A DNA stretch of 64,000 nt from Aegotheles albertisi (taxonomy: Eukaryota), in assembly GCA_039906565.1 (NCBI GenBank), contig JBDMAX010000536.1, forward strand, positions 225,716 through 289,715. The letters run 5' to 3'. Positions 3,250 to 41,621 of this stretch are shown piece after piece. The notes under the pieces were generated by a model. The model was not told the DNA's origin. It made no database searches and worked only from the letters and a program-made list of their open reading frames with translations. The translations under genes and the position numbers were made by a program. Position 1 is the stretch's first letter, and each line of letters begins with the position of its first letter.

Positions 3250-3538
3250 AATGTGTGAATGGGGTCACAGAAAAATCGGGCAGCGTCCTGTTTGGGGCAG
3301 AAAGCGTGTTGGCTGTGCAGCTCTTGGGGAGGGCAGGAGGAGGCTGGCTTCCTGGGTCAGTGATGAGTGTTGGCATGTATTATCTGATGTGGAGGTGATG
3401 TCTATCCCCACTTTAGCTCTAGAATTACCCTGAGACCCAGGGAACTCCAGTTTCCCCCGGCAGTGACCTTTGAGCTTTTCCAGCGTGTGGAATCAAGTCA
3501 CTGCCACAAATCCTGTCCCAGCGCCAGGAGAAGGGGGG
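3250..3538 (+). repeat. Internal direct repeat, copy 1 (~290 bp), inside the left arm.
   Basis: Near-identical to 4841..5129 from gaatgtgtga...ggggtcaca to ...gccaggagaaggggggg. Encodes the shared ORF tail ...GQRPVWGRKRVGCAALGEGRRRLASWVSDECWHVLSDVEVMSIPTLALELP. Confidence 0.8.
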
Positions 3539-4320: not shown

Positions 4321-4850
4321 GAGTGGTTTGGGTTGGAGGGGACCTTAAAGCTCATCCAGTGCCACCCCACCGCCGTGGGCTTGTGTGCGCTTGGAGCTCA
4401 AAGAGCCCCTGGGATCCTGGGCTGTGTCACCTGCAGCGTGAGCAGCAGGGCGAGGGAGGGGGTGATGGTTCTCCTCATCTGCTCTGCTCTGCTCTGGTGA
4501 GAGCCCTCCCTGTAATGCTGGGGCCAGGTCTGGGCCGCCCCAGCATCAGAAGGACACGGAGCTGTTGGAGCGAGTCCAGAGGAGGCCACGGAGATGCTCG
4601 GGGAGCTGGAGCAGCTCTGCTCTGGGGACAGGCTGAGAGAGTTGGGGGTGTTCAGCCTGGAGAAGAGAAGGCTCGTGGAGACCTTAGAGCACCTTCCAGT
4701 GCCTGAAGGGGCTCCTGGAAAGCTGGAGAGGGACTGGTGCCAAGGGCAGGGAGTGATGGGACGAGGGGGAACGGGTTCCAACTGAAGGAAGATGGATTTA
4801 GACTGGATTTTAGGAGGTTCTTCACTGCGTGGGTGGTGGGAATGTGTGAC
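4321..4850. mobile_element. Two CR1 LINE 3' fragments arranged tail to tail: antisense 3' end at 4321..~4545 and sense ORF2 C-terminus at ~4546..4850.
   Basis: 4321.. reads ggttggaggggaccttaaagctcatccagtgccacc, the reverse complement of the CR1 3' terminus. The ORF at 4594..4785 gives the CR1 ORF2 motif [14 protein letters not shown]. Mirrored in the right arm at about 22789..23318. Confidence 0.7.
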
Positions 4851-5129
4851 TGGGGTCACAAAAAAATCGGGCAGCGTCCTGTTTGGGGCAGAAAGCGTGT
4901 TGGCTGTGCAGCTCTTGGGGAGGGCAGGAGGAGGCTGGCTTCCTGGGTCAGTGATGAGTGTTGGCATGTATTATCTGATGTGGAGGTGATGTCTATCCCC
5001 ACTTTAGCTCTAGAATTACCCTGAGACCCAGGGAACTCCAGTTTCCCCCGGCAGTGACCTTTGAGCTTTTCCAGCGTGTGGAATCAAGTCACTGCCACAA
5101 ATCCTGTCCCAGCGCCAGGAGAAGGGGGG
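4841..5129 (+). repeat. Internal direct repeat, copy 2, immediately 3' of a sense CR1 fragment.
   Basis: Same as copy 1. Mirrored copies sit in the right arm at about 22510..22798 and 24098..24386. Confidence 0.8.
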
Positions 5130-8100
5130 GACGCAGTGTGAGTTTTGGTCCATTTACGTGTTCAGAGGTCTGGTTCTTGGCCTGGTACTGGATGGTACTG
5201 GGAGATGCTTCGGCGTTATCTGGATGCGTCTCCGGATCCCCAGAGCAGAACAGTGTTCGCAAATGCTGCTGTAGAGATTTGGTGGCAAACTTAACGAGCC
5301 TGTCTTAACGAGCGTGCCTGTTCTTCCTTCAGCGATACGGTTTAGTCCCACCTTGACACCCAGAATATCTGAAGGGTCATGCTCACATCTGCCCGTGGTC
5401 ACCATTAACACACGTGTGCAGGTTTGCTTTTGAAGGGGCCTGGTGTGGTTGTCTCTTCTGTTGGGGTTCGTTGAGTTATCTCTGAGGTGGCGTCACGGCT
5501 CAGCGGAAGGCGTGTGATCCCTGAGGGAGCAGAGGAGGTCCTGTATTGCTTCCATTTTCTGCATTTCTTCAGCAGAAAAGACTTGCATCAGCCTGATCTC
5601 CAAATGACAGCGTTTCACACTTTGTGGGTAGGTTCAGCTTCAGGTTCTGACTTGGGTTAGGGTTGCTCCAAGTGTGTGCTGGGAGAGGTCTGTCAGGATG
5701 GACCTGCCCAGCAATCCCCCATCTGCAGGGCTGGCTTGGTCTGGGTCAGCTTCCCGGGCTGCATGTGCAAAAGAGAAGTTGCAGCTCTCTAGTCAGTCTT
5801 GATCTAAACCCAAGGTGGTTCCTGTTTGTGCCCAGACACCTGAGAGAGACCTAAATGTTTCAGGCAACCCAAGAGGAGGGCCCCGATGTTCATAAGAAAT
5901 TCTTAACAGCTGTTTTTGCAGGTGACTCAACTGAGGAGTGAGAACCTAAAGCTGCTGGGGCTCATCTAGCTGTAATGAGGATGGAATTAATTATTTAAGT
6001 GCACAGGGTAAGTGGCAATCAAGGTACTCAAATCTCACTCGCTCTCTGTCTTCTGGGATCTGTGCCTGGCATTGCTCACCAGGATTTTGCAGCTGCAGGG
6101 GCTGGAGGAATTAGCCAGGGTGGGGAGGAGGGAACAGCAGCAGCATCGATCCTTCTCTTCCCACTCTCTGTCTCTTTTGTCCATTTTCATTAGATCTTAC
6201 TGCTACCTATTAATGGGGATTTCAAAACCTCATAAAGAGCACAGAAGAGGATTGAAGAGGTGACTGAAGGAGATAGGAGGAGAATGTTTAAGAGCAATTG
6301 ATTTAATGGGAATAAACTGCTTCAGGTGAAGTCAGGCTCTTCACTTTAGAATCACAACAAACATCACACCACAAAACACACAGTCGCAACAGTGGGAGAT
6401 GCTTCACCTTGTTCTGATGAGAGATGTGGTTGCTTTCCAAACCTTTCAGTCCACCTTCTAGTCCTGAGATGCTGCAGGCAAGTCCGTTTCCTTTTTGTGT
6501 GAATTAAATCACCATCATTTCTGCGAAGAGCATGAGCCAGCACCATGTGGATGGCCAGAGGATTTGAAGGCAATCCTATGGTCCGTAGTAGAACATCACT
6601 GCACCACCCTGTGCAGTGCCAAAGCCAATAGCAGAGAGTATTTCCTCGTAAGGCAGCCCTAGGAGAGGAGCACCAGCAGCCTGTTTTGGAGAGTGGTCTT
6701 CACACCATTTCAGGGTGGCAGTGTGGTCTGGTGCAGGCTTGTGCTCCCACCAGGACTGCAGGCACACACAGGGCAAGTCAGAAATGGCACCGGGTGTTCC
6801 TTGGTGACAGAAACCCCAGCGCCCGCCGTCACACTTCTCACTGATTGGTGTGGCATGGGCTTGTCTTCTGAAATTTCTGCCTGAAAGGTAAGAGCTGGAT
6901 TTCGAAGGCATCCAGAGAGGCCCCAGGGTGTGTGCTAGAGCAGTGACTGGTTAGCGGTTACATTTTTAATGCAAGCACTGACATGTCAGAGTGGTGCCTC
7001 TGCTTCCTAGAACACCACCTGGGAACCTCTGAAAGTGTGCACCGCTTCTCCTCTCCTGCATCGATACATTTGCAGTAACTGAGAAACAAAATATAAATTA
7101 TTGCTTCATTTGCAGGCGGGAAAATGCAATTTCCAGTTGATGTTTTCCTTAGAAGACCATACCTAGGTATTAAAACCACATTACATTGCATTGCTCACAC
7201 TGTGCTCACACAGCAATCGGAAAATGACCTCTCTTGGAATTTTATTAGAAGTCTTAGAGATTTGGCAACACTGGTTATGGGTTTGCCCTCTCCCAAAGGA
7301 GGGAGTTAACCGGGGTCTGTCACTGTATTGGTCACCCCCTGCCTCACACCTCTGTTTGCTGCCTTGGCAGAAATTCAGTTGTCAGCCCTCTCACTTTCTC
7401 TCAGGAAGGGCAGGAGAGGCAAAGTCCCAAAGGGTGCTGTGGACTGCAAAGATGTGCCCTTAACTGTCCCACGGTTCATCAGTCACAACCATGGCCATTC
7501 ACAGGAATGGCCTTGTTAGGCTTTGTACACACCAGTGACTGGCTGCGAGTTGCTGAAATAAAATAGTTTAATAATGTCTTGTACTTCCAAATTTTGGTTT
7601 GGTGTCTGTGCTTGTCCTTTTACATTTCTTTTCTTGCACTTCTAACCTGTAGATTTTCATGCCTTATACTCAGTTGCACTCACACTTCTTTAAGGAAGAT
7701 GGGAAAAGCTGTAACCTCTCTGGTAAATGGCTGGAATGGAAGAATAATCTCTAAGCTTTAAGAAGACAAGCAATTGGCCAAACCCTTTTCCAAATCCAAT
7801 GGCCGTCTGCCTACCATTTGCAGACCATTCCCTGTGAAGGCAAAAAGCAAAGTGCAGTCAGGGAAAGGACTGAATTATTTGGGTGAGATGAAGGGCCTAA
7901 CCCCAACTTTGGAGAAAATCTGTCGTGGTTTATTTTTTGGCTCTCTATACTAAGTCATGCCCTTTGTTGGCCAAACCAGTGCAACTCCCTGGAGAGGGAA
8001 AGATGTTTATTTCAGATGTGAGCACTCGTTTCTCTTGTGGCTTAGCATCTCCCACTGTACCCCCACACATGCATTTCTTCAGGAACACTGTCTTACCCCT

Positions 8101-19644: not shown

Positions 19645-20139
19645 GTAGGGCCCCACATTTCAGGGGAAGGTGGCAAGGGGAAATCCTGCCTCTGCAGCCA
19701 GAACAGGTGGAAACCTGAAGGAAAATAAGTTATTCCTGTCAGTCAGATTCTTTTGGTGGAAACTGGAAACAAGATACTAAAAAGACCAACTTGTCTGTGA
19801 AAAAATGGTTCACCAGAAGAAAACCTTAAAATTCCTATTTCTTTCCAACTCTCGTATGTTGCAAAGGCCAACAGATGACAGTTTCCATGATAAGGAAATT
19901 GCTCTCGGGTACCCTCAGGTTATCAAACTGTATCCAAAACCCTTTTTGTGGAGTTAACAGCAGACAGAAGCATCTACTGTGGCACCCAAGCCCAACAGAG
20001 TGATGTACAATACAGACTATCTGCTGCCATACGCCCTTGCCAGTGGAAACAGAGCCTGACGGCACGCTCACCTCTGCTGGGTGCTCTAAAAAGACTGCAG
20101 GATCTCAAGTGGATGTTTTAGGATTGGTTTTCTCTGTAG

Positions 20140-23100
20140 AATGGCCATGGTTGTGACTGATGAACCGTGGGACAGTTAAGGGCACATCTTTGCAGTCCAC
20201 AGCACCCTTTGGGACTTTGCCTCTCCTGCCCTTCCTGAGAGAAAGTGAGAGGGCTGACAACTGAATTTCTGCCAAGGCAGCAAACAGAGGTGTGAGGCAG
20301 GGGGTGACCAATACAGTGACAGACCCCGGTTAACTCCCTCCTTTGGGAGAGGGCAAACCCATAACCAGTGTTGCCAAATCTCTAAGACTTCTAATAAAAT
20401 TCCAAGAGAGGTCATTTTCCGATTGCTGTGTGAGCAAAGTGTGAGCAATGCAATGTAATGTGGTTTTAATACCTAGGTATGGTCTTCTAAGAAAAACATC
20501 AACTGGAAATTGCATTTTCCTGCCTGCAAATGAAGCAATAATTTATATTTTGTTTCTCAGTTACTGCAAATGTATCTATGCAGGAGAGGAGAAGCGGTGC
20601 ACACTTTCAGAGGTTCCCAGGTGGTGTTCTAGGAAGCAGAGGCACCACTCTGACATGTCAGTGCTTGCATTAAAAATGTAACCGCTAACCAGTCACTGCT
20701 CTAGCACACACCCTGGGGCCTCTCTGGATGCCTTCGAAATCCAGCTCTTACCTTTCAGGCAGAAATTTCAGAAGACAAGCCCATGCCACACCAATCAGTG
20801 AGAAGTGTGACGGCGGGCGCTGGGGTTTCTGTCACCAAGGAACACCCGGTGCCATTTCTGACTTGCCCTGTGTGTGCCTGCAGTCCTGGTGGGAGCACAA
20901 GCCTGCACCAGACCACACTGCCACCCTGAAATGGTGTGAAGACCACTCTCCAAAACAGGCTGCTGGTGCTCCTCTCCTAGGGCTGCCTTACGAGGAAATA
21001 CTCTCTGCTATTGGCTTTGGCACTGCACAGGGTGGTGCAGTGATGTTCTACTACGGACCATAGGATTGCCTTCAAATCCTCTGGCCATCCACATGGTGCT
21101 GGCTCATGCTCTTCGCAGAAATGATGGTGATTTAATTCACACAAAAAGGAAACGGACTTGCCTGCAGCATCTCAGGACTAGAAGGTGGACTGAAAGGTTT
21201 GGAAAGCAACCACATCTCTCATCAGAACAAGGTGAAGCATCTCCCACTGTTGCGACTGTGTGTTTTGTGGTGTGATGTTTGTTGTGATTCTAAAGTGAAG
21301 AGCCTGACTTCACCTGAAGCAGTTTATTCCCATTAAATCAATTGCTCTTAAACATTCTCCTCCTATCTCCTTCAGTCACCTCTTCAATCCTCTTCTGTGC
21401 TCTTTATGAGGTTTTGAAATCCCCATTAATAGGTAGCAGTAAGATCTAATGAAAATGGACAAAAGAGACAGAGAGTGGGAAGAGAAGGATCGATGCTGCT
21501 GCTGTTCCCTCCTCCCCACCCTGGCTAATTCCTCCAGCCCCTGCAGCTGCAAAATCCTGGTGAGCAATGCCAGGCACAGATCCCAGAAGACAGAGAGCGA
21601 GTGAGATTTGAGTACCTTGATTGCCACTTACCCTGTGCACTTAAATAATTAATTCCATCCTCATTACAGCTAGATGAGCCCCAGCAGCTTTAGGTTCTCA
21701 CTCCTCAGTTGAGTCACCTGCAAAAACAGCTGTTAAGAATTTCTTATGAACATCGGGGCCCTCCTCTTGGGTTGCCTGAAACATTTAGGTCTCTCTCAGG
21801 TGTCTGGGCACAAACAGGAACCACCTTGGGTTTAGATCAAGACTGACTAGAGAGCTGCAACTTCTCTTTTGCACATGCAGCCCGGGAAGCTGACCCAGAC
21901 CAAGCCAGCCCTGCAGATGGGGGATTGCTGGGCAGGTCCATCCTGACAGACCTCTCCCAGCACACACTTGGAGCAACCCTAACCCAAGTCAGAACCTGAA
22001 GCTGAACCTACCCACAAAGTGTGAAACGCTGTCATTTGGAGATCAGGCTGATGCAAGTCTTTTCTGCTGAAGAAATGCAGAAAATGGAAGCAATACAGGA
22101 CCTCCTCTGCTCCCTCAGGGATCACACGCCTTCCGCTGAGCCGTGACGCCACCTCAGAGATAACTCAACGAACCCCAACAGAAGAGACAACCACACCAGG
22201 CCCCTTCAAAAGCAAACCTGCACACGTGTGTTAATGGTGACCACGGGCAGATGTGAGCATGACCCTTCAGATATTCTGGGTGTCGAGGTGGGACTAAACC
22301 GTATCGCTGAAGGAAGAACAGGCACGCTCGTTAAGACAGGCTCGTTAAGTTTGCCACCAAATCTCTACAGCAGCATTTGCGAACACTGTTCTGCTCTGGG
22401 GATCCGGAGACGCATCCAGATAACGCCGAAGCATCTCCCAGTACCATCCAGTACCAGGCCAAGAACCAGACCTCTGAACACGTAAATGGACCAAAACTCA
22501 CACTGCGTCCCCCCCTTCTCCTGGCGCTGGGACAGGATTTGTGGCAGTGACTTGATTCCACACGCTGGAAAAGCTCAAAGGTCACTGCCGGGGGAAACTG
22601 GAGTTCCCTGGGTCTCAGGGTAATTCTAGAGCTAAAGTGGGGATAGACATCACCTCCACATCAGATAATACATGCCAACACTCATCACTGACCCAGGAAG
22701 CCAGCCTCCTCCTGCCCTCCCCAAGAGCTGCACAGCCAACACGCTTTCTGCCCCAAACAGGACGCTGCCCGATTTTTTTGTGACCCCAGTCACACATTCC
22801 CACCACCCACGCAGTGAAGAACCTCCTAAAATCCAGTCTAAATCCATCTTCCTTCAGTTGGAACCCGTTCCCCCTCGTCCCATCACTCCCTGCCCTTGGC
22901 ACCAGTCCCTCTCCAGCTTTCCAGGAGCCCCTTCAGGCACTGGAAGGTGCTTCAAGGTCTCCCTGGAGCCTTCTCTTCTCCAGGCTGAACACCCCCAACT
23001 CTCTCAGCCTGGCCCCAGAGCAGAGCTGCTCCAGCTCCCCGAGCATCTCCGTGGCCTCCTCTGGACTCGCTCCAACAGCTCCGTGTCCTTCTGATGCTGG

Positions 23101-26100
23101 GGAGGCCCAGACCTGGCCCCAGCATTACAGGGAGGGCTCTCACCAGAGCAGAGCAGAGCAGATGAGGAGAACCATCACCCCCTCCCTCGCCCTGCTGCTC
23201 ACGCTGCAGGTGACACAGCCCAGGATCCCAGGGGCTCTTTGAGCTCCAAGCGCACACAAGCCCACGGCGGTGGGGTGGCACTGGATGAGCTTTAAGGTCC
23301 CCTCCAACCCAAACCACTCTGGCATTCGGTGACTTTTTGGTTTTGTTTCAAACGCGATGTCGCAAATCGCGTTGGTGACTCCACACCCCGAATTCTCCCA
23401 AATTCTGGGGACAAAAATTAACCCCCGATGAGCTTTGAACAAAGAAAAGCCACCTCACACCTTCTCCAGTTGCACGCCGAGGCTTCCAGAAGGCATCTGA
23501 CGTTCACGAAGCCACCAACCCAGCAGGTCAACGTTTACCTGACGCAGCCAGGCCGTTACAGCCAGCAACCCTGTGCAAAATTGATTAAACAAAATGACCC
23601 TTTAGGAAAAGATACTGAAAGCTCAGGCAAAACACTAACATTTTCTTAAAAAAAACCAACCAACCAATCAACAAAACCAAACCGAAGGCTCAAACTGCTC
23701 CCCGCGGGCCGGAGGCGACATTTAGGACTGTTCTGCATCCAGGCTGTGCATTGGTCCTGCCCGTTCCTCTCGCCCTACGGCGAGCCCCAGAGCAAATGAA
23801 TTCCCTGGCAGAAACGAGTGAACGCAGGTCAGCAACAACCCCAGCAACCCCCTGACCCCCAGGTTTAATTACAACGTGTCATAAAATCAACGGGAATGGG
23901 CAAATCCCTCTGTTTTCCCCAGGAAACGACATCTGCGGCGTTTCTGGCCACGTTTCAAGAGGTCACTAGGCAAGTCCAACCTCCAGAAAGCCCCTGAGTC
24001 AGCAGAAGCCTGCTCAAAACAAATCACCTCCTCCTGATCAAAACACCCCCGACAGACAAAGAAAAGAAAACAAAAGGACGCACAGCAACCGTGTGCCCCC
24101 CCCTTCTCCTGGCGCTGGGACAGGATTTGTGGCAGTGACTTGATTCCACACGCTGGAAAAGCTCAAAGGTCACTGCCGGGGGAAACTGGAGTTCCCTGGG
24201 TCTCAGGGTAATTCTAGAGCTAAAGTGGGGATAGACATCACCTCCACATCAGATAATACATGCCAACACTCATCACTGACCCAGGAAGCCAGCCTCCTCC
24301 TGCCCTCCCCAAGAGCTGCACAGCCAACACGCTTTCTGCCCCAAACAGGACGCTGCCCGATTTTTCTGTGACCCCATTCACACATTCCTGGAGACGTGAC
24401 CAGAGATTCACCACGCGAGCAGCCAAGCCACTCTCTGGAAGCACTGGAGCCTCCTGGGTATCTGTTTTCACCACGGTTTGCATGAGAAGGAAAAGGAAAC
24501 ACACAACAGATGGAGATCAGCGCCAGTGAACAAATGAGATGCAGAGCAAGCCCTTGTCACGCTCTGCCTTCCTTTCTGCTGGTTTTTCCTGTTGGTTTAA
24601 TGAGGTGGCGAATGGTTTCCCAAGCCATGAACAGCTCGGGGTGCAGTGATCCCTCGCACACAGGACCTGCATCACGCCTGTGCAGCACAGACAGCACTGC
24701 TGCTGCCAGGCAGTACTCACACGTTGCCTGCCCTTGCCCCAGGTGACCATGTCCAGGCCATGTGCTTCTCCAAACGCCACGGGCCATCGGGTTTGTCATC
24801 GCGCCGTCCGCATGGCACAGCGCGTGGCACAGCGCAGAGGGACAACGCAGCACTCCTTCTCCTGGAATGCAGGGGCTGACAGAAGCATTCTTTTTGAACA
24901 GCACCACCCCCACGTTCACATCACCATGAGAAACAGGAAACAAAATGCTACAGAGCCCAGGTTTTGCCCTGAGCAACAACATCTCCTGGGAAATGTCCCC
25001 TCCTCGGTTTTCTCGTCCAGCCCACAGGGAGCTCCCTCACCAGTGGCCAGGGGCACGTGGCAAACGCCGTGACCTGTGCGTCTGCTGTGCAGGACAGCAA
25101 ACAGCTCCTCTCCAGCTGTTGTGCTGTCACACACGGACCCAAACCAACTCCACAGCTCCCCTGCAGCTGCAATGCCCTGCAGATCCCCTGCCCTGGCTGC
25201 AGATCGTCCTGCAGCACCGCAGAGCTGGGGGCTCGCAGAAATAACACCGGAGGCTTTTGGCCAGCAGAAGCCCTGCCGAGGCCCAGCAAGCAGGTTTCGC
25301 CGTTTCCATGCGAGCGTTACAGCCCACAGCAGAGCTGGGATTCCAGGCCAGTCCCGCTGCTGCTGGGGCACGGGCAGGCACAGCTCCAGCAGCTGCTCAG
25401 GGAGAACAGCGACAGTCAGAGCCTGCCCCTGTCTGGAGCTGCAGCCTCTCGGGTTTGCACCAGGGCTCGCACAAGATGGGAAGTGAAAAACCAGACTGGA
25501 CTGTGAGAAATTTGTTCTACAGCAACGGTGAGCAAAGCAGAGCGAGACAAAGTGCTTCTTCTCAGGTGAAAAGTGCACAACAAATCAGTAATTCCCGAGC
25601 AGACAGGAGCAATTCCCGTGGTACCTGCAGAGAGGAGCAGATCCGAGAGACACAGTGCAAGGACTGAACAGCACAGCACCACTTTTGTCTCGTGCTGAAA
25701 CACGAACACCCTGCACTGACACAGGAAGGCCATGTGCTACAGTTATAGCTCACAGAGTCATTGCAGAACGTTCAATGTCTGTGAACAGACAGCAATATAG
25801 ATTTGTGTATCTATGAAACCCAAACCTTTCCTCTCCCTCTGACCACACGCAGCTCTCACCTCCACAGACGAGTGATCATCCACAAACCCCAGCGCAGCCT
25901 GCAGCTGGAACGTGTGCTGAGCAGGCAGCTAAAGACTCCCGAGAGTGCAGACACAGCCGTGAGCCGAGGGCCCTCACCAGCACCCCGTGGCACTGGGATC
26001 CAGTCGCTGGGGGCTGCCCGGCAACCCGCGCCCCCCCGATGGACGCTGCGAGCGGCAGCGTTTGCCAGGCCGAGCAGGGCAGGGCTGTGCCCGGCTCCAG

Positions 26101-27636
26101 CAGCGTCCGACCGGGGGAGCCGCGCGGAAAGGCGGCTGCGGCCTCCGGGCAGGGAACGGGGCCCCCACGAGGTCGCCTCGGGGCGATGCCGGAGCTCAGC
26201 TGAGAGCCGCCCCCCCCCGCAGAGCCCGGGGACCGACACCGCAGCTCCCCCCTGTGCGTGGCGGGGGGCGCGGGGCAGGAGAGCAGCGGCTGCGGAGCGC
26301 AGCCCAAGCCCCCCGGGAAGGGCGTTCGCGGTGCCGGAACCAGCCGGCCCCGACCCGGCCGCCGGGCCCTGGCCCAGGCCGAGCCGCGCAGGCCACGAGG
26401 GGGCCGGGGCCGCCCCCGCCGCCTCCCCGGGGCTCTCCCCGGGGCCCGGGCAGGCTCGGTCTCGCCGCCGGGGCCCCCGGCTCCCCCCCAGCTCCCCCCC
26501 AGGCCGCAGCCGGGCCCGACCCCGCTCCGCCGCCTCCCCCGCGCGCACCCCCCGGAGCGCCCGGCAGCGCGGGCCCAGGGGCGCCGCGCGGCAGGACCCC
26601 GCCATAGCTGCCCGCGGCGTTCGCCTGACCCGCGCGCGCCGGCGGAGGCGGTGCCGCGGCCGGGCAGGAGCTGGCACCGCGGCGGCGCCCCGCGCCCCGC
26701 AAGGACCCCGCCCCGCCAGGACCCCGCCCCGCAGGCGCGGGCTCCTCAGCGGCCGCCGGGGCAGGAGCCGCTCCTGGAGCTCGGCCCCGGCTCCCCGCAC
26801 AGAAACCCCCGCGCCGGCCCGGGGAAAGCCTCGCCGGCTGCCGACGCGCCGAGCCGGGCGGGCGCCGCCCGTGCGTGTGCGGGAACGCCCCGTGGGGCCG
26901 CGTGAGGCGCGGTTCGCAGAGCTGGGCCCGAACGCAATGGAGGGGCGGCCTGAGCTTGGGCCCGGCCCGTGACACAGCCTGGGCAGTGCCGGCTGCCCTG
27001 GAGCGCTTGGAAACGAGGCCTCTCGGTGTGCCTGGGGGGGCTGTGGGGGCTCTCGGGGCGTTTGAAATCCCGCAGCCGTGTGTGCGGTACCCGATGGTGC
27101 TGCTCTCCCTGCAGGGTGCTCTGGGGAGCAGCTGCCAGTGGGGGCACAGAGGGGCTTGGGGGAGAAGGGACCCCTGGAGATGATCTGCCCCAAGCCCTGC
27201 ACGAGCAGAGGCAGCTGCCCAGGACCACGTCCACTTGGGTGTTGGCATCTCCAAAGATGGAGACTCCTCAACCTCTCTGGACAGCGTGTGCGGGGTTTGA
27301 GCTGCCCTTACAGGCAGACCAGGGTGGGTATTTGTGTGCAGAGGGGATTTGGGGGATTTTATGTGTGCTCGTTGCCTGTGGGCACTGCTGAGGGGTGCCT
27401 GGCTCCCTCCCCTTCCATACCATGGGACGTTCATGCATGTAGATTAGGATCCCCCTGAGCCTTCTCCCCAGGCTAAGCAGCCCCAGCTCTCTCTGCAAGC
27501 TCCAGACCCTCCATGATCCTCCATCCCTGGCCTCTCTCCAGCACTGGGGATCCCAGCACTGGACAGAGCAACTCCAGCTGTGGCCTCACCAGCGCGGAGT
27601 GACTTCCCCAAGGAGTCCAGGGGAGGTGTGTTCTGC
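20140..27636. repeat. Right arm of the large inverted repeat. It probably continues past 27636, pairing with sequence left of the window.
   Basis: Mirror of 1..7500. About 1% substitutions are visible as amino-acid changes between mirrored ORFs. One indel is visible: ORF 4398..4967 is intact on the left but split on the right as 22672..23094 and 22814..23242. Confidence 0.9.
25850..27040. promoter_or_regulatory. CpG island at the outer end of the right arm. Mirror copy of 600..1790.
   Basis: Same composition as the left-arm island. ORFs 25803..26972(+) and 25856..27271(-) mirror 664..1833(-) and 365..1780(+). Confidence 0.6.
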
Positions 27637-29352: not shown

Positions 29353-29424
29353 TTAAGCCTGGTATTTGCCAACGTGTTCACGAGCTATGATCATCCTTTG
29401 AATCTGAGCAGTTCCCTCGTAAAT
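29353..29424 (-). CDS. ACADM: ACADM exon 12, the last coding exon, including the TAA stop.
   Basis: tcttttcag|ATT TAC GAG GGA ACT GCT CAG ATT CAA AGG ATG ATC ATA GCT CGT GAA CAC GTT GGC AAA TAC CAG GCT TAA translates to IYEGTAQIQRMIIAREHVGKYQA*. Human has [23 protein letters not shown]. Confidence 0.9.
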   Translation of the reverse strand: MYEGTAQIQRMIIAREHVGKYQA

Positions 29425-29538
29425 CTGAAAAGAATCATCGCAGTAATGTTAGCTGGTTGATTTTTAAAATATTCTTGTAAACCTTCACAGCATGGACTCG
29501 GATGTGCAGAAAGACAGAAAACTGAAAAAATCCCAGTG

Positions 29539-29578
29539 ATTAATGAATTAATGAAAAATTAATGAAAAATTAATGAAC
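29539..29578. repeat. Short AT-rich tandem repeat, (attaatgaaaa)n, in ACADM intron 11.
   Basis: attaatgaattaatgaaaaattaatgaaaaattaatgaac. Confidence 0.8.
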
Positions 29579-31279
29579 TACAGTGGGCTAAGTGCAATAA
29601 GCCCCATGAGACACTGACAGCCTTTTTCTCCAAACTCAGTAAGGTTCTCATGAAGCTAACAGACGTAGTGGGTGAAGAACAATGGGGAAAATGTCTTATC
29701 TGGGGAAGAAAATACATAATCCATGTTTTACAAAGTAGGTTTTGAAACAGTGAGTGGAGGGGAGGAGGATACCTGTGCTGGAAGTGCTGCATTTTCTTCA
29801 ACTTGCCTTTCAAGGCCATAGCAAATGTTTGCTCACACCCATTTATTCCCACTGCTCCTCCTTAACTAGTACTCTCTTCAACACGGTATTTCCTTTTCTT
29901 TATTTCAACCATGTATTCGTGTATTTTCCACTAGAAAAATTCTGCATCTTCTGTTCCATCCAGCTTGCTGGCAGCAGAGATTCACAACACCACACGTACG
30001 CAGGGTTAATGCAGAAAGAAGGCCACGTGCTTCACGGGAACAGTGAGATGTGATGCAAGGGCAGGAGAGTTTAGGGGTTCGAGTGTTTCAGCTCCCAGTT
30101 CTGACAAAACTTGCTTTGGCAAACTGCCCCAAATGCAATTGCATGCAAATTCACTCTCTGCAGTCATAGAAGAGGGATAAATCTTCCCAAGAACCTTACA
30201 GAGCTTTGAAAAAATAAAGATGCCATCACCTGTAGCCACACTGGTTTCTTGGCTCAGGGGAAATGGTTCATTCTCACAGCGAATTCGCTGACTGCGGTTG
30301 CTTACCCTGTACTTAAATCACTTGCTGATGAAGATAGCCATGAAACTCAAGTGTAAAAACATCAAAGCCCACAGCCTTCTTAAGTAACCATAAGAAAGGT
30401 TTTGGTTTATAAGCCAATGGGAGTAGTTTCAAGCATCGCTGACAAGTAAAAAAAGGGAAGTTTTCCAAATTTGAGAAACTAAGTTAGAGCTTCTATCACA
30501 GTCACCTAGATCTGCAGCCAGAGAGAAACCCAGAGGAAAGCATGGACATGTAAGGATGTCACTAGTAACCACAGCAGCAGAATTGTGTCATTGTGAGAAA
30601 TTGCAGATATAGGGAAGAAAAGAACAGGTGGATAACAAATGGCCAAGAAACACGCAACAAATGGCCATCAGCATATAGCATCTGGAATTAGGCAGTGACC
30701 CAGGGAAGTGCAGTCAAGAGACATAAATTGAATAGCTGTAAAGACAAAAACCCTTTCCTGTATTCTTTTGGGGATGAAGGGGAGCAGAAAAATCACAAAA
30801 AATTTAATACTTTGAACAATTGAAAAAAAAAGGCTACCTAGCCAAGCATTCATCAGTGTAATGGAAAATCTAAGGAACTGGGATCTTGTGAAATAAGCCC
30901 CAACTTTCAAATAACCCAACCATCTCATCTGTTTCTCTAGGAAACCATGGAACCTGGCAGGAAAAAAGCCCAGTCATAACCAAGTCTGATAACTCATTCA
31001 TTTACTCACTTGCAGGAGTGCAATTAGGACTAAGAACCTTTAGGTGCCAAACAGTGATTTTCTATCCTTAGGGTTAGACAAGAAAAAATCTTGTCTAGTC
31101 AGAATAGATTTAATTCTAAAGTCAGCGGTAAGAGAAATTTCAACTCCCTAGAATCTTAAGAATAATAGCTGTTATCCCTAACATTAGGGATCATGGTCCA
31201 CGTGCACTTCTTGCCACCTATTTTGACATGTTTTATATAGTCATTATTAATGTCAGAGGGGAAAAGATTACTGTTTTGC

Positions 31280-31390
31280 TATACATAATTAAATACCATC
31301 TCATTCCAACCCCCTGCCAAGGGCAGGGACACCTCTCACTAGACCAGGTTGCTCCAAGACCCATTCCAACCTGGCCTTGAAGTCACTCAC
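31280..31390 (-). mobile_element. Small CR1-related fragment in ACADM intron 11.
   Basis: ccattccaacccctgccaagggcagggacacctctcactagaccaggttgctccaagacccattccaacctggccttgaa resembles the antisense CR1 segment seen at 9420..9500 and 41160..41240. Confidence 0.5.
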
Positions 31391-31948
31391 CTGATTATGG
31401 GTGACTATGGGCTAAACATGAGTAAATAGGAGCATGTTTTGTTCTTTTGGGAAAAAAAAAAGGCTGATCACTGCAGGCAGTGCCAGACTTCTGTCAATAT
31501 AACACACGCGAGATAATTTATCCCTGATACTCCGTGCTGGTCGTACCTCAGCTGAAGTAATCTGCCCAAGGGTTCAGACAGAAGGTTTAACGCACAGCCA
31601 GAAGTGAGGAAGAGAAGAACATTATACAGGAACTTACAGAATACCAAAGCAAGCACCGGTATTTCCATCACTGTTTTCTGAGTTCAAAAGCTTCACAATG
31701 AAGAGTCCAAGAATTTTAAGGTGTTACCACATCAGAAAAACAAAATCACAACACTAAATGTATTTCTCTTGTGTAGGTTAAGTTGTTGATCTAATGCAAA
31801 GAGAACTGTATGCAAGAATTTGCTTGATTTGAATGCTCTTTCTTTAAACTGAAGGATTATTGCTCTTGTCCTCAAAATGTTTTTAATATGCATACCTCAT
31901 GATTTCAAGTAAGTAACCATCAGTTTATTTCATAGAAATTGTATGCTA

Positions 31949-32236
<288 letters not shown>

Positions 32237-32906
32237 CTACAAATGATGAAACAAACCAAGTTAACATTGCCTGCTTAAAATTCTATCACGTCCAAGAAGA
32301 ATAGGGCCTTCTTCATTTCTTAATTTGCAAATTCAACACACTCAGGAAATTGTACTTGAAGAGTTCTACAGAGTTTAGATCAGGCTCTCAACTGTATGTT
32401 GAATGAGACTTTCAAGTTTTTAATTCTAAAATCCACTTAGTCACAGGGATTAAGCATTGAATTACAAAGGTTTTGTGCTTTACTCTTCATGAGATCTGTA
32501 TTTAGTTTGCTGTTTATTTATGTTTCTTAAAACCTGGTAAGTGGTGTGATTGGCAGTGTTTTCTATTAATTAATACTGTGAGTCTCATTTCACGTACGTC
32601 ACAGAGGTTTTTTCCTTCCCTGAAAATCCCTGTTCATAAGAGTTGAAGAACTTAAGTAAGTCTGGACAGCACATGAGTTTCGGGGTCTGGGGTGGAGTTT
32701 TCTTTGTGATTTTGCTGTTATCAAGAAGTTACAGAAGAACCCCAGGAGCTACTGCTAGATTTCCTTAGTGCTGATGTATATACTTGAAAACCCAAGCGAT
32801 GGCAGAGATACAGTAAATCACATGTCCCAAACACCAAGGAACAACCTTGAAAATTCACTAAGTAGTGTATCTGGTATGAAAACATGGCTTTATTTTAATA
32901 TGTTTA

Positions 32907-33083
<177 letters not shown>

Positions 33084-33087
33084 TTAC

Positions 33088-33228
33088 GGGTGGTCTGGTC
33101 TTATCAAAAGCTCCCATTGCGATTTTAAAGCCAGCTCCCTCAGCTATTAATACATTTTCTTTTGGAACTCTTACATCTTCAAAGACAATACCTCTTGTAT
33201 CAGAGCAGCGCTGACCCATATTCATTTC
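33088..33228 (-). CDS. ACADM: ACADM exon 9.
   Basis: [47 protein letters not shown]. Acceptor ttttcag|, donor |gtaagta. 141 bp. Confidence 0.95.
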
Positions 33229-33838
33229 CTGAAAAGGGAAGTTTACAGAGGTGCAACTAAATTGCATTTTTCCAAGGTATAACATATTTTCATTCTTTAG
33301 TTTACTCAAAGCCTAAAGCAAGCTTTTTTCCCCAAAAAAGTAAAGTAAGCATTTTTTATTATTCTTACTAGGAACAGCACTTTGTTTTCTTTCTTTTTTT
33401 TTTAATCCCAAAACAGAGAACTAGTGCCAGTGTCTCCAAGGCCTATTCCTTGAGCAGGAGTAGCTCACATTAAAGCACACCATGTGTTCATGGTTCAAAT
33501 TGACCCCCTGGCTTCTTACATTTTCAAAGTATATTACTTCACATTAATTGGCACTTGTCAATTCAATGGTTCTCAAAGATTCTTTTGCAGCTGTGCAAAG
33601 TCATATTACTTTAGACCATTCTGAATAACTCCTTATAGGAATTAATCAAATTGTAATTATTAAGTAGGTCTTACACATCGTTTCTGTATGCTGTGAAAAA
33701 GAAAATATCATTGTACATGAGCACATGAAAATGTTCAGTCGCTTAACGCTCTTTTTTCTTTAAGTGTGATTTGTTGCAATGTTGGTTGAGAAGTGAATAA
33801 CCATTCCTGGCTTGGCAAGTAAGAGATACACTCTTCAC

Positions 33839-33947
33839 CTTTCTTCCAATCTGGATTCCGGGGCTATTTGCTTCCACAATGAATCCAGTAAAGGCTTTGC
33901 TTGCGGGGGCTTTTGGATCTGGATTGGTACGAGCTAGCAAAAAATAC
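33839..33947 (-). CDS. ACADM: ACADM exon 8.
   Basis: (W)[36 protein letters not shown]. Acceptor cactag|, donor |gtgaag. 109 bp, phase 2-in/0-out. Confidence 0.9.
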
Positions 33948-35134
33948 CTAGTGTAAAACAAAGAGGAGAGGAGTCAGTTTCTCCTCACAATTAACTATCG
34001 GATATTTTTTAGCTAACAAGTTAAATGTTTTTATGTGTGTTTGTACCATATAATAAATCTATTAATAAGTTCACACCCTTTTTTCTTGGCCCTTCCAAAA
34101 AAACCTGAGGGAGCAAAAGAGTAAGTGTCAGTGCATCTTACTGCAAAAGTCAAGATTTAATTAAATTCCTTCAGATCAACATGCAAAGGTTCTCCACTTT
34201 TTCCATGTTAAGTCTTAATATTGCAATTAGCTTCATAAATAGTACAAAAGAAACTTATTCACAGCACATACATAAAAGATACTGCTTAGGAGATACGGAG
34301 TATTGCATGCAAAATGTTGTTATCCTCTTGATTTCAGCTATCTTAATTTTATTCTTCTAAGTTGTAAATAAGTTTTTTCCTGTTAGAAATTCAACAGTTG
34401 TACATCACATTTATGGTGTTCAGTAACATCAACAGATAGCTAGTAGATTCTCTTTGATGGCTCTGCCTTGAACAAGGAAATAAATAACGCGAAAGTTCAG
34501 CTTTATACAGAAACGTATAAAGTTTTTCCTCTTGAATTAAAAACAATTTGTATTGGGGGTGAGCATGATCTTACGTGAGACAATGAAAGATGTCTGTGTT
34601 GTAAAGCACCTCCATAGAGACCACAGCAAAATCTGCATTCTCTGACACTTGGAAAATACCTTCCATTAAGAAAATTAAATGTAACACCACAATCCTTGAG
34701 TTTTTCTATCTTTGCTAAAAGTGAGAGATGTTTCTAGTAGAATCAGAAGTAAGGGATCTTGCTCACCACACCCACAAAGCAAGGTCCCTTGTAACACCAG
34801 CCTCTAACACTCTGCAAGTTAACTCTTACTGTCGCTGCCCTTCCCTGAAAAGAAAGCAGAGTTCATTTTGTTTGACAGTAGCAAAAATTGAGAGGTGTTC
34901 TTGAATGGAGCTGTCATGTCCATGCTCAGTGTCCTTTCCAGGCACCGCACAGCACTGAGACCTTTCTTACACCTTGTCCTGATAACCTGATCAGAGATTA
35001 AAGTGCAGTGTGGTGCATAATGAACGTTCAGATCTGTAACAGATCTTCAAGGAAACACCAGCACCTAACTTGCAGAGAGACACACACACACACATCAGTA
35101 TAGAACAGAATAACAGAAACAGCAAAGTGACTCA

Positions 35135-35326
<192 letters not shown>

Positions 35327-36038
35327 TCAGCAACCACAAAGGATTACAGAATTGAGTGTAGCAAACTGATCTGGGTAGAAAACTCCAAAATACTACATCA
35401 AAATACCCCATCAACTGTCTGAGCAAGAAACCAAACATGTATGGGTTAATTTTCCTTATAAATCCATAATAAGGCTTTAAATTGTCTTTTAAAGACCAAC
35501 TGAACTATTTTGTAACTTTTAATAAGTTATCACCTCCTTATGCTTCACACACTCTGATGTGAAAGCTGAGGATTTTTCAAATTTGGAAATAAGAGCAGAG
35601 AGTTACACTTTCTGGTTACTGTGCTCTTCATCTGACAAGGCTTAGTCGTTCGGATTTTAACACATTGCACGTGAATCTTTACTTCTTTCTATGTAACAAA
35701 TACTGCTTAGATAATATTTAAGATTCATAAACGCTGTTTAATGCCCATTTGAGTCAAGTTTGTGCTCATACAAATCTGGCATTTTTCTTAAACTCCTCCA
35801 CCTTCTCTTGAAAGGGAAATAAAATTAATTTTCAGTAGGCAACTTAGGATGGTTTTCCAGGTAGTATCTTCTATTTGCTTATTGAATGCATCTAATTCAA
35901 TATTCCTTGACTTTCAGTAAAAGCCACGAACCAAAAAAAGGCTACATTGTGAGTATGTATCAGTGTTTAAAAAAAAACCCCAAAACCATTATGAATATAA
36001 TTTCGGAGCAGTCTCCAGTGTTCCTAAGTTATACTTAC

Positions 36039-36119
36039 ACACATCATTGGTTCCTCTGTCATTCTTCCTAAATATTTTTTCTGCTGTAGCTCATTTCCTG
36101 CAATGATCACTGGCATTTG
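36039..36119 (-). CDS. ACADM: ACADM exon 6.
   Basis: [27 protein letters not shown]. Acceptor tttcag|, donor |gtaagt. 81 bp. Confidence 0.95.
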
Positions 36120-36205
36120 CTGAAATAAAATATTTATACTATTAATCCACCTTTTTAAAGGGCACAGACTCTAGTTTACAGGAGGCAAGAAAAGACAGAA
36201 CTTAC

Positions 36206-36306
36206 CCCTAGGGAGTTTGCCTCAATGGCAGTTTGAACGCCCGTACATCCGTAAGCTCACTCTTCCGTAATAAGGCACGCTTCGAAACTGCCGAGGCCCA
36301 GCCCAC
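36206..36306 (-). CDS. ACADM: ACADM exon 5. It contains an in-frame TGA (minus-strand codon at 36257..36259) at a conserved Leu.
   Basis: (G)[32 protein letters not shown] versus human [34 protein letters not shown]. Acceptor ctgcag|, donor |gtaagt. 101 bp, which matches the human exon 5 length. The plus strand reads gctcac; gctaac would encode Leu. Confidence 0.9.
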
Positions 36307-38517
36307 CTGCAGTTGAAATATTCTGTTGACTAAAATGAGTTTCAAGTGGAACAGACGAGTGATTTTCAAAAATTATCAAAAACATTTTCCCTGCATACAC
36401 GTGATTGTGCACTGCGTTTGAATAGACATTCCCACGCAGGCTTTTTCAATAAAGCTTTGCCAGATGAGTAACGGATGATTTAAAATGTATAATTGGCAGT
36501 TCCGGGGTGACTGCGTGCTTGATGTGGGACAAGATGCACAAAGTGGCAAGAATGTACCACTAGGATCTTTCAACTTCTTCACATCTAAGAATTTCCTTAA
36601 AATTTCTTAGGAAGCAGAAAAAGGGCCACGGGGGCTCCTGAGCTACCACAGCACTTGGGAATAAAAAGAAAGTGTCCATAGCAGTTAGAAAAACACCCCA
36701 GTAACCTGTTTCTGACAGCAGCCAACATGCTGGGAAGTGCATAAGAATGCGTAACAATACTTTCTAAAAATACTTTTGCCAGCTTTCAGGTGACTTCCTC
36801 AGCCAAAAGTACCTTTGGTATCTTTGTTGCGCCAACCCTTGACAGACATTTTCTGTGAACTCGCCCAGGCTCTTTTTGAGCCCGTGTATAATTTTAGCAT
36901 CAACAGGGGCAATGAGTTTCACAACTTAGCTACACCCCGAGTGTAGAACCATCTCCTTTCATTTATTCTGAACCTGCTGTCTGCTGACTTCAGTCGATGC
37001 CTTCTGGTTGTACTGACAGGGGCAGTGAGCTGTCAATCTCTTCTCGCACTCTCCACAACACTGGTGTTTTAGGAATTTCTCACATGGAAGCTGTTCGGTA
37101 TCTTTTACCATCTTTGCCATCCTTTTAGGAACCTCCTCCATTGCCACAATGCTCTTTTGAGGTGGAAGGAGCAGACTGTGTCATGAATTAAAGAGGTGAG
37201 TGCAATTTGGATTCAAGCTGCGGCGTAATTACAGCTTCTGCTTTTTTCTTCATTCCCTTCTTAATTTCTGACCTTAAATTTATGGTTTTGACCACTTTTG
37301 CTGACATCTTCACAAAACTATATATTACAACCCCCCACATCTCTTCTTTTCAAAGGTATTAACTCATTCAGAAGACACTATTTATCTAGGAAGTTTGGAT
37401 TGCTTCTTTACTTTCTTGTGTGCATCACTCCTCCTATTTTGAATTTCACCTGCCTTTTTAACAGTCCCTCAGCTTCACAACCTTCTCCTACAGCTCTTTG
37501 CACAAGCCTCATCTTTTCTCTACTGAATAACTTAGTATTGTAAACTCTGTGACCTCACTGTTGACCTCCTTTTCCAAATTATTTATGGATATCCCAGAGA
37601 GCACAAGCACCAGCCAGATTGTGCTCTACTTCAGGGAACTCTAATAATTTTTTGTGCCACGACTTCCTTTTATGAAAACCCTTCTCTAGCAGGTCATGTT
37701 TATGTGTGTGTCCCCTACCTCTGTACTTCATCTTACTTGCTCTTAGTTTACGTGGTGGACCAGGCTTACTGGTATGTATTTTCCCAGCTCTTCCTTGCAG
37801 AACTTGTCAAGCAATGGTGTCCAATTTGACACTTGTAGGTTTTAATTTAATAACCAAGTGATTATACAATGTGCAGCTATTTAAACCTTGAGTTTCCCTG
37901 GATTTGTGGCTGAATAAACGTGACCCTCACAATTGCTCCTTTTCTCTCTTCGATCCTTAATCGTGTTTATTAAATTTTGGTACAAAATATACACTCTGGT
38001 AAGCCTTCAAAAAAACCAGGGCCTGCTATGGACATTTCCCCAAGGTCGTTCGCAGGTAATATATACATGTAAAAAAGAAAATCTAAAATTTAACACCTTT
38101 TCCATGGTTTTCCATACCTAAGCACTGCCAAAGTATGGCTTTACCCCACCTCGTCTAAACTGGAAAACTCCTTCTGGAATAAACTCTTGAACTGCTCCCG
38201 CCGGGGTCAGGGACCAGATCAAAATACGACCTTCTAATTTCTCTGCCTCATCAGCTGGCACCGTGCACCAGGGGAACATCAGGCAATTGTAATCATGGTA
38301 CAAAATCTGGTCATAAATTACTAAATGATGATCTAATTTGTTGCCTGATTCCATCCCCCCCTAGTAACACTTGTGTGCGTCAGCCTGCCTACTGATTAAA
38401 TGCACATGATTCAAGTATGCAACTTTCCACTTTACACACAACCCATAATTAGACATAAAACTTCCTCCAGGACTTTTCTGTGTTTTATTTTACAGATTAA
38501 AAAGAATGTTTACTCAC

Positions 38518-38587
38518 CACAGCTTTCTGGTATGTGTGAATTCATAAGACCAAGTTCCCAGGCCCGCTTTATGAGCGGAAGAGGATA
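38518..38587 (-). CDS. ACADM: ACADM exon 4.
   Basis: [23 protein letters not shown](G). Acceptor ctttcag|, donor |gtgagta. 70 bp. Confidence 0.95.
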
Positions 38588-38693
38588 CTGAAAGAGACAG
38601 AGAAAATCACTGCCCGATTCATTGCAGTTAATGATTTAAATTTTACACAGGTTAAGAGAAATCTATTTTTTCTCCTACTGTATGGTAGATTCA

Positions 38694-38791
38694 CTTCTCC
38701 GGTTTTGTCATATTGTGCAGCAACTGGAATAATTTCTTCCACAGCAAATTTAGGAGCAGTAGCTTGAAATTCTTTCTGTTCATCAGTAAGT
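38694..38791 (-). CDS. ACADM: ACADM exon 3.
   Basis: (E)[32 protein letters not shown]. Acceptor aaaacag|, donor |gtgaat. 98 bp. Confidence 0.9.
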
Positions 38792-39636
38792 TCTGTTTTT
38801 TAAAAAAACAAAGGTAAAAAAAAAGTGTCATGAATTTTGCCAGTTGTCAGACTAGGAGAAAAGAGAAAACAAGCCTCAGTTCCCTCCAGGACAATCTAAA
38901 CCTCCAGCACCTGCCTTCCTGGACCTCTCCAGAAACCAAAGCAGCTCAACTTGCTCTTTCCCTCTGGAGAAAACCTCCACTGATCTCTAATCAACACCTA
39001 CAATGCACTTCCTTACTTCTGACAAAATTATTTTAAAAGTATTGAGAATAGAGTAGGGAGTAACACAGAATGTATTGCCAAAAGAAATGAAAAGCATGTT
39101 CCTTATCTGACGATTCTGGCTGCTCAAACACCTGGCTGCAGACCTGCTAAATTTGCTTTTACATAGATAACATGGCAAGATGCGGGTGAATTTCTTTTTA
39201 ATGTTTCTTTTTGATACATTGATTCATTTTGATTTATTGATACATTTTATTTTAACATCATTTTCACATTTTTACGTACTTAGCATTTATTTTAACACTT
39301 TATAACATTTCCTTCTAAGTTCAACTCTGCATTTAACATTTTGAAAGCCAATGTGAGATAATTATTCAAAGCAACTTTGGCAATATAAAAAGCTCCAGGC
39401 AGACATTAGTTAAAAAAAAGAAAAACTCATCTATATCACACACATACCTAGCTTTCCTGAGCTGGAGAAGAAAGTAATTCTGGATTCTGAATATTTTTAA
39501 AAAAGAATGGAAATCTATTCGGAATAAACATTGTGAATTCCTACTGAACTGCAATGTGGTTGTTTGGGGTTTTTCTCCCCTAACTCTGCAGTTTGTCCTT
39601 AACTGTTGTATTTCTTTCCAAACCAGCAATACTTAC

Positions 39637-39736
39637 CAAAGCTAAAGCCAGCTCCAGGTTTGCTTATGTGTACATTTTGAGCAGCTTTACTAGAAACTGA
39701 TCTCCACCCATGCCCTGCAATGGCTCGGAGCATCTG
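39637..39736 (-). CDS. ACADM: ACADM exon 2, the mitochondrial presequence region.
   Basis: QMLRAIAGHGWRSVSSKAAQNVHISKPGAGFSF. Acceptor cctttag|, donor |gtaagt. 100 bp. Confidence 0.9.
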
Positions 39737-40549
39737 CTAAAGGAAAAAAAAAGAACGTCAGGTGCAAGATCTTTGCAGCTCAAAGTCTCACAAAGCTGCT
39801 GGGACTGCAGCACAGGACGGGCCATGGAGGACACAGGCAATAACAGGTATCGACACAATGAAATAAAGTCTTTTCACAGAATACTGAAAACATGTCTAAA
39901 GTTAAAAAGTGAAGAAATGCAGGAAGAGCACTGCTAGGCACAGAAGTGCTGCATACTGAGCTGCTGAGGGAGATGTGTTGCTTGGAGGCTTCCCCAGCCA
40001 CAGCTGTTGCAAAATGGTTTATTGCTTTCTTACCCAAGTTCTACCTTCTCGCCTAAACTTCCTTGCCTGACTGCTGCTACTTGAAAACCAAACAAACAAT
40101 ACCCACAAACATCCAGAAAGACCTTGATCCTTCTACACATTTTATCTGGCAACAGACGAGAAGATGAGGCTGAGAAAAAGCCAGGTGACTGCCATCATGT
40201 TTGCTGTTTCTTGTTGAAGATGATCCTGTCAGATATAGCTTTGCCACCAAAAGGTTTTGTCTGAAAGCCCTGAATTCAAAATAACACTAAAGGTGATACC
40301 CTACAGGAAAGAAGGTGGCAAATTTATGCTGGAGAACCGGAGTTTTTGTGGTTTTCATACCTGAGTGATGTGCAAGGTGAACACCAGAGGTGTTCAAAGG
40401 TGGACAGACCCAGTGCTCCCCCCAGAAAAAGGGAAATGTGACTTGGACAGGGGGGTTCCTACTTGGAGGTGGCACAAAGGAGTGACAAAGGGCTGCAGTT
40501 CACTACCTGTAAGGATCTGGGTGAGCACCTGCCTGCTCTGTCACCCTCC

Positions 40550-41150
40550 CTACGGCCCGGCCCAGCGCCCTTCACCTTTGCCCCACTCCAGAAGCGGCTC
40601 CGGGCAGGGCCGGTGCCGAGGCCGCAGTGTCCGGCGGTCGCTTCGAGCGCTCCCTCGAGGAGCACCGGGGAGGGCCCAGCGGGAGGGCCCGGCCCCAGCC
40701 AACACTGCGGGTGTTTGTGTCCCGGTGCTGCCGGCAAAGGCAGCGGCGATGCCCCCCGAGGGGCCCTGGGGCCGCGTCCAGACCCGGCGGCGGCCGAAAG
40801 CCCCCGGGGCCAGGGCTGAGGCGCCCGCCCGGGCCCTGACGCCGCCGGCTGCGGCACGGGCTGGGCCCCGAGGCCTCCGGCCCGCCCCGGCCCCCAGAGC
40901 CCGTCCCGCCGCTCACCCGACCGGCTCCGATCGCCGACATCTTGGGGAGGGCGCCCGGCGGCCGCGGAGGCTCCTGGCAGTGCCCGGCGGGCGGGGCGGG
41001 CAGGGGGGGGGAGGTGCCAGGGAGGCCTTGCAGGGCCCGGGTGGGCTCTCCCCGGCCCTCGGGAGCTGCTTCCAGCCGCCCGCGGCTTTTCCCTGCCAGC
41101 GGGGAATCACAGAACCACAGCCTGGGTTGGGTGGGAAGGGACCTCAAAGC
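40550..41150 (-). promoter_or_regulatory. ACADM: ACADM CpG-island promoter and 5' UTR region.
   Basis: GC/CpG-rich block spanning the start codon. The long plus-strand ORF 40365..41318 here is judged a GC-composition artefact. Confidence 0.7.
40917..40940 (-). CDS. ACADM: ACADM exon 1, coding part (ATG at 40940..40938).
   Basis: ccccaag ATG TCG GCG ATC GGA GCC GGT CGG |gtgagcgg translates to MSAIGAGR, inside a CpG island. Summed coding sequence over 12 exons is 1272 bp, or 423 codons (human is 421 aa). Confidence 0.85.
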
Positions 41151-41620: not shown

Positions 41621-41621
41621 A

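Follow-up and report, generated by a model that had tools for sequence, protein, structure and literature searches.

The window analysed here, a 64,000-nucleotide stretch of Aegotheles albertisi DNA, carries on its minus strand a copy of ACADM, the medium-chain acyl-CoA dehydrogenase (MCAD) gene, that is interrupted by a single in-frame TGA at codon 114 (36257..36259). This copy belongs to an avian "ACADM-like" lineage that we call type B, or ACADM-B, the canonical ACADM being type A (both labels were coined in this analysis). The stop probably reflects a real and recent event, either the pseudogenisation of a redundant or partly redundant paralogue or a null allele that is still segregating. 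In the scenario that we propose, an old segmental duplication of the ACADM-RABGGTB region would have given rise to avian ACADM-B; the duplicated RABGGTB would have decayed to exon remnants hosting SNORD45, with ACADM-B remaining constrained in storks, penguins, and falcons; and a single T>G change would have converted the Leu114 codon from TTA to TGA, in the species, in the individual, or in one arm of a palindrome. Loss of ACADM-B is probably tolerated, because birds have a type-A gene beside an intact RABGGTB and possibly an inverted partner copy as well, a redundancy that we infer for the source species. Premature stops in redundant duplicates are common in evolution, and for the ACADM pair such an event is directly documented, since the falcon type-A copy carries one.

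Rebuilt by tblastn against human MCAD combined with splice-site inspection, ACADM-B occupies 29353..40940 of the minus strand from start to stop codon. Its 12 exons lie at 40940-40917, 39736-39637, 38792-38695, 38587-38518, 36306-36206, 36119-36039, 35278-35148, 33947-33839, 33228-33088, 33008-32913, 32236-31988, and 29424-29353 (24, 100, 98, 70, 101, 81, 131, 109, 141, 96, 249, and 72 nt, respectively), giving a coding sequence of 1272 nt and 423 codons. All 11 introns are kept with AG/GT boundaries throughout, so that the intact exons, canonical splice sites, and exon lengths described in an earlier sequence-only reading are borne out. Beyond the TGA at codon 114, which deprives the copy of the uninterrupted reading frame of an ACADM gene, no further stop or frameshift was found in any of the 12 exons. 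The conceptual protein is 84% identical to human MCAD over the whole precursor and matches the human MCAD structure PDB 2A1T over residues 5-422 (E = 1e-243), and the ACAD N-terminal, middle, and C-terminal domains (PF02771, PF02770, PF00441) are present in all of its top homologues. Its best protein matches are from birds, the top one (98%) being an "ACADM-like" protein of Ciconia boyciana. Seven variants of the protein used as queries (Leu or X at position 114, with or without R55 and Q142; the truncated 113-residue form; and a form starting at M133) had no exact database match, and the N-terminal 161 residues matched proteins of other species only. Relative to human and other vertebrate ACADM (PDB 2A1T, 3MDE), the window copy thus shares the 12-exon structure, the exon lengths, and the conserved catalytic Glu, but it is broken at codon 114, lies off the canonical ACADM-RABGGTB locus, and belongs to a separate avian paralogue lineage. 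One difference in transcript structure concerns intron 3. RefSeq models of the stork and penguin B genes (loci L001 and L002) include an isoform that keeps this 111-nt intron in frame, as a VNLP...LFQ insert, whereas in the window the same intron is 107 nt long and its retention would therefore shift the frame.

At the interrupted codon, the minus strand reads ...ATT ACG GAA GAG TGA GCT TAC GGA TGT..., which confirms the in-frame TGA reported previously and places it at codon 114 of the rebuilt gene model, aligned with human Leu112. Of 21 vertebrate sequences aligned at this position, 19 have Leu and the two tinamous have Ile; at the DNA level, Ciconia B, Aptenodytes B, and Passer A have TTA and Falco B has TTG. 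The claim that a single T>G change struck a conserved leucine is therefore well founded, and because relatives have TTA or TTG at this position, the change at 36258 is derived. Counting as window-specific any base at which the window departs from a state common to stork B, penguin B, and falcon B, exon 5 (36206..36306, 101 nt, minus strand) has six such changes: five are AT>GC, the stop among them, one is G>C, and none is GC>AT.

A product of 113 residues would result, broken off within the N-terminal helical domain and devoid of the middle beta-domain, the C-terminal domain, and the catalytic Glu403. The truncation was originally placed at about residue 130; it falls instead at precursor residue 114, although still ahead of the catalytic domains, as the same reading had stated. 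The YEGT motif (Y402-E403-G404-T405, with GAG at codon 403), whose glutamate corresponds to human mature E376, is invariant in the alignment, and being 3′ of the stop it is left untranslated. An early stop ahead of later exons is expected to elicit nonsense-mediated decay, and the ACADM-B mRNA is a likely target because the fifth of its 12 exons holds the stop. A donor-like hexamer, GTGAGC (36255..36260, minus strand; formerly GTTAGC), identical to the exon-1 donor of the gene, arose through the same T>G change. If used as a donor, it would remove 55 nt and cut exon 5 to 46 nt; rescue by cryptic splicing can be ruled out since this would shift the frame. With or without use of this donor, the copy is null.

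Six diagnostic sites separate the two avian types (D/N229, R/K303, A/P314, L/M324, I/V366, and F/Y421, type A given first, in window numbering). The window copy is type B at all six (N229, K303, P314, M324, V366, and Y421), and thus carries none of the residues of a canonical type-A orthologue; these type-B residues are common to the window, Ciconia B, Aptenodytes B, and Falco proteins. The type-A states occur at all six sites in Ciconia A and at the first five in Pygoscelis A, whose sequence ends before position 421. In Ciconia boyciana, the type-A protein (P0125) is encoded on a 68-Mb contig and the others (P0135 and P0132) on the 1.76-Mb record CM067939.1. For these comparisons, type-A DNA came from Passer (intact) and Falco (decayed) only, Falco A was compared at the protein level, and clustering of proteins at 90% identity hid most species from the paralogue comparison.

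Locus context points the same way. The sparrow type-A gene (Passer, L005) has an intact RABGGTB 2.5 kb downstream, with exons 76-93% identical to human. By tblastx and tblastn, the window contains no intact RABGGTB exons, only a single 65%-identical remnant in each arm of a repeat located downstream of ACADM-B. The stork and penguin B loci likewise have RABGGTB exon remnants downstream (50-63% identity; the penguin copy has in-frame stops), and SNORD45 is kept downstream of ACADM in the stork, penguin, and falcon B loci. The non-coding flank at 21755-29400 of the window aligns with the B loci of all three of these birds, and not with the sparrow A locus beyond the 3′ UTR. Intron identity to the window gene is about 80-86% for stork and penguin and about 77-81% for falcon. 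Taken together, the lack of an intact RABGGTB, the decayed remnants, SNORD45, the B-locus flanks, and the type-B residues settle that this gene is a type-B paralogue and not the canonical ACADM orthologue. Its diagnostic residues and its downstream decayed RABGGTB and SNORD45 are those of the avian "mitochondrial-like" MCAD genes (Ciconia boyciana XP_072704348 on CM067939.1, Aptenodytes patagonicus XP_076219877, and Falco XP_005235328); these stork, penguin, and falcon copies differ in having an open frame with Leu at codon 114, where the window has TGA together with R55P and Q142L.

These observations imply that ACADM-B was born from an old segmental duplication that included ACADM and at least part of RABGGTB, after which the RABGGTB copy decayed to a snoRNA host and ACADM-B stayed intact in several orders. 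As for the age of the split, pheasant shares the type-A residues R303 and L324, and the type-B residues K303 and M324 also occur in tinamous, lizard, and human. From two sites only, this hints at a possible A/B split before Galloanserae and Neoaves diverged, in which case landfowl would have lost B.

Beginning 1.7 kb past the 3′ end of ACADM-B, the region is present twice as a 99.6%-identical inverted repeat with 7.5-kb arms and a 12.6-kb spacer. The right arm (20130..27635, minus strand) represents the original sequence downstream of ACADM-B and shows synteny with the B loci of stork, penguin, and falcon; within it are a stretch rich in CpG, two SNORD45 copies, and the decayed remnants of RABGGTB. 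The left arm (1..7507, plus strand) is its inverted copy, cut by the window edge; window position 1 is the counterpart of 27635, and the ACADM-B stop codon (29353) lies 1.7 kb further on. Because this arm is cut off by the window edge, a near-identical inverted copy of ACADM-B may lie just outside the window, on the left, if the arm extends that far. The arms differ by 25 substitutions and three indels, and these differences are clustered, with five within 198-479 and none over about 2.2 kb that includes the GC-rich stretch (480-2706).

The decayed RABGGTB exon remnant in the right arm (23458..23577, minus strand) is 65% identical to human residues 197-236 and has its mirror copy at 4063-4182 (plus strand) in the left arm. 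Amid these exon remnants lie four SNORD45 box C/D copies, each scoring 59.8 bits, two in the right arm (22609..22693 and 24197..24281, minus strand) and two in the left (3355..3439 and 4946..5030, plus strand). Corresponding copies are found at 27231 and 31498 of the stork locus (L001), 25755 and 29997 of the penguin locus (L002), and 23297 of the falcon locus (L003). In chicken, the U45 snoRNAs are encoded in RABGGTB introns 1 and 2 (PMC2653536). The SNORD45 snoRNAs therefore seem to have outlived the coding capacity of their host gene, in the window as well as in the stork, penguin, and falcon B loci. Each arm also contains a 292-bp direct repeat with 99.3% identity between units (3248-3539 vs. 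4839-5130, mirrored at 22509-22800 and 24097-24388); each unit includes one SNORD45, and their similarity points to recent local duplication or homogenisation.

Upstream of ACADM-B are the exons of an RBBP6-like gene (52679-59083, minus strand) encoding a zinc knuckle and a RING finger, 65-91% identical to human RBBP6; the gene perhaps extends to about 46960, and proline-rich long open reading frames at 46962-48745 (minus strand) may be its terminal exon. RBBP6-like genes form a very large multi-copy family of short genes on small scaffolds in many neoavian genomes, and the best database identity of the window member is 85% (cranes). A Pfam scan of long open reading frames elsewhere in the window returned a RING finger and nothing else. 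CR1 LINE reverse-transcriptase fragments at 9390-10440, 16949-17403, 41619-42641, and 54254-54932 are 95-96% identical to one another, which suggests a CR1 subfamily that was active fairly recently in this genome.

The substitution pattern indicates that ACADM-B was functional until recently. On the window branch, the coding sequence accumulated 46 substitutions, 34 synonymous and 12 non-synonymous, and seven of the latter fall within the first 26 codons, the fast-evolving N-terminal stretch equivalent to the mitochondrial leader. When the intronic substitution spectrum of the same branch was applied to the ancestral coding sequence, the neutral expectation was about 63 non-synonymous changes, 2.6 of them stops, and about 23 synonymous ones; the window-branch omega is thus about 0.13 (p = 4e-11). 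Divergence on this branch is 8.4% in introns and 3.8% in exons. The low omega implies that ACADM-B was under purifying selection nearly throughout its separate history, and that the stop is recent.

Three radical changes in the mature protein are specific to the window copy: R55P, L114*, and Q142L. Codon 55 is CCT (Pro; 38752..38754, minus strand); of the 20 other sequences that reach this site, 19 have Arg and one, a LOW QUALITY model, has His. Codon 142 is CTA (Leu; 36087..36089, minus strand), where every other bird compared has Gln, His, or Glu. That all three changes are transversions is a little unexpected, with a chance of about 1 in 27 under the substitution spectrum of the branch. Codon 55 aligns with human Arg53 (mature Arg28), the site of R28C, a mild folding variant (PMC2667288).

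Over exons and introns combined, AT>GC changes on the window branch number 254, against 108 GC>AT, and in the 350 bp centred on exon 5 (36495-36150) the counts are 21 and 1. The same comparison at the other B loci gives 129:29 in stork (L001), 289:103 in falcon (L003), and an unbiased 60:48 in penguin, which suggests that GC-biased gene conversion acts at the B locus with lineage-specific intensity. The exon-5 tract may have been shaped by this process, judging from its pattern, which is the one expected from GC-biased gene conversion. GC-biased gene conversion can make AT>GC alleles frequent even when they are mildly, or indeed strongly, deleterious, and as an AT>GC change within an AT>GC-biased tract the stop itself was possibly helped by it. 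Gene conversion from type A was also considered as the source of the window-specific bases and rejected, as only 3 of 43 match Passer A and the TGA is not among them.

The main competing explanation is an assembly, base-call, or polishing error, in which case the genome would truly read TTA and ACADM-B would be intact. A single wrong base would give exactly the picture seen, namely a lone lesion in an otherwise functional-looking gene with a low omega, intact splice sites, and no frameshift, and the stop lies in a region with near-identical repeats, where read mis-mapping during polishing can plant wrong bases. We nevertheless consider such an error unlikely. The window assembly contains no Ns, and most differences between the repeat arms are substitutions; with only three indels between them over 7.5 kb, the assembly is not noisy and its consensus does not appear error-prone. 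A random error creating a stop in a 1272-nt coding sequence is also very rare a priori (about 4% of changes multiplied by the per-base error rate), the same copy has two more radical changes at conserved residues, and a paralogue base imported during polishing would still mean a real TGA in some copy. Because of the local AT>GC bias, with which the T>G change agrees, the stop looks like part of a real substitution process and not like an isolated artefact. These considerations disfavour an error, and the base at 36258 is probably real.

An improbable alternative, clearly weaker than an error, is a disease-like nonsense allele of the only working ACADM, whether because this is the canonical gene or because B is the sole functional copy, with the sampled bird as a carrier. 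A recent origin of the stop would suit a segregating allele, and Falco, with a dead canonical A, relies on B, so that in a species with a similar arrangement a stop in B would matter. However, the decayed RABGGTB, type-B residues, and type-B flanks show that the locus is not canonical, falcons have more than one B copy, the window has an inverted duplication 1.7 kb past the gene, and the presence of R55P and Q142L in the same copy suggests relaxed constraint and not one isolated hit. The comparison with human MCAD-deficiency alleles (e.g., R28C, c.157C>T) is apt insofar as a truncation ahead of the catalytic domains would abolish activity, but humans have one ACADM gene, whereas the loss of the window copy is probably buffered by a paralogue and perhaps by a palindrome partner, and for this reason no disease analogy is warranted. 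Hence, among the three candidates that had been put forward from the sequence, a recently inactivated copy fits best, given an avian paralogue in a duplication-rich region that was under purifying selection until very recently; a base error is disfavoured, and the MCAD-deficiency-like framing, which took this locus for the ACADM gene proper, finds no support in a locus without an intact RABGGTB and with a type-B signature.

Two further readings can be set aside. An old, long-dead pseudogene or retrocopy is very improbable: a duplicate copy beside a decayed neighbour gene might suggest one, but retention of all 11 introns with consensus splice sites shows that the gene is not a retrocopy, and long-term decay is refuted by an omega of about 0.13 and by the presence of only one lesion, against a neutral expectation of about 63 replacements and 2.6 stops. 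Decoding of the TGA, by selenocysteine insertion, programmed readthrough, or RNA editing, would account for the otherwise intact frame and has no other support, and it is hardly credible, since no SECIS element was detected in the window at gathering score, nor, with the cutoff relaxed to E<=10, in the 1.8 kb that follow the stop codon, all 21 homologues have Leu or Ile at the position and none has Cys or Sec (which together rule out selenocysteine recoding), A-to-I editing would yield Trp and not Leu, and GCT after TGA is, to our knowledge, not a known readthrough context.

Other birds illustrate how either paralogue can be lost. In Falco peregrinus, the type-A ACADM immediately upstream of an intact RABGGTB (L006; CM042638.1, 35.57 Mb; locus positions 12215-24508) is a pseudogene: exon 9 contains an in-frame stop, exon 7 has an indel, and radical replacements are numerous, yet annotation still lists a 163-aa protein for it. 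Type-B ACADM in the same species is present in more than one copy, intact, on another chromosome. With A dead and B intact in the falcon, the paralogues look interchangeable, either one being losable. The falcon and the window thus share the disabling of one paralogue by a premature stop and the persistence of the other, but in the falcon type A was hit and is far more decayed, whereas in the window type B was hit and has a single lesion. Degenerate, truncated "ACADM-like" models also occur in Aquila, and short ones (about 165 aa) in Parus and Pogoniulus. A full-text literature search returned nothing relevant on avian ACADM duplication, and the duplication of the ACADM-RABGGTB segment in birds, with reciprocal loss, appears to be undescribed, although the extra copies bear a "-like" label in NCBI annotation.

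Taken by itself, the window copy, a young pseudogene or null allele with one lesion in a duplicated gene, is of a well-known kind. A broader hypothesis, which we put forward tentatively and hold to be nearly as plausible as not, is that the neoavian ACADM paralogues are interchangeable and lost reciprocally, the window capturing the first lesion of such a loss, possibly fixed with the aid of GC-biased gene conversion in a palindromic, recombination-rich region. It would be a mistake to label the stop described here as ACADM loss or as a model of MCAD deficiency before the other copies have been checked. The duplication of the ACADM-RABGGTB segment would date from early in the history of Neoaves, with both ACADM copies retained over tens of millions of years and different bird lineages now keeping different ones, which would provide a clean example both of reciprocal loss between paralogues and of snoRNAs that have survived their host gene. 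This affects the assignment of orthology for a core enzyme of beta-oxidation in studies of bird metabolism, including those of migration, fasting, and diving.
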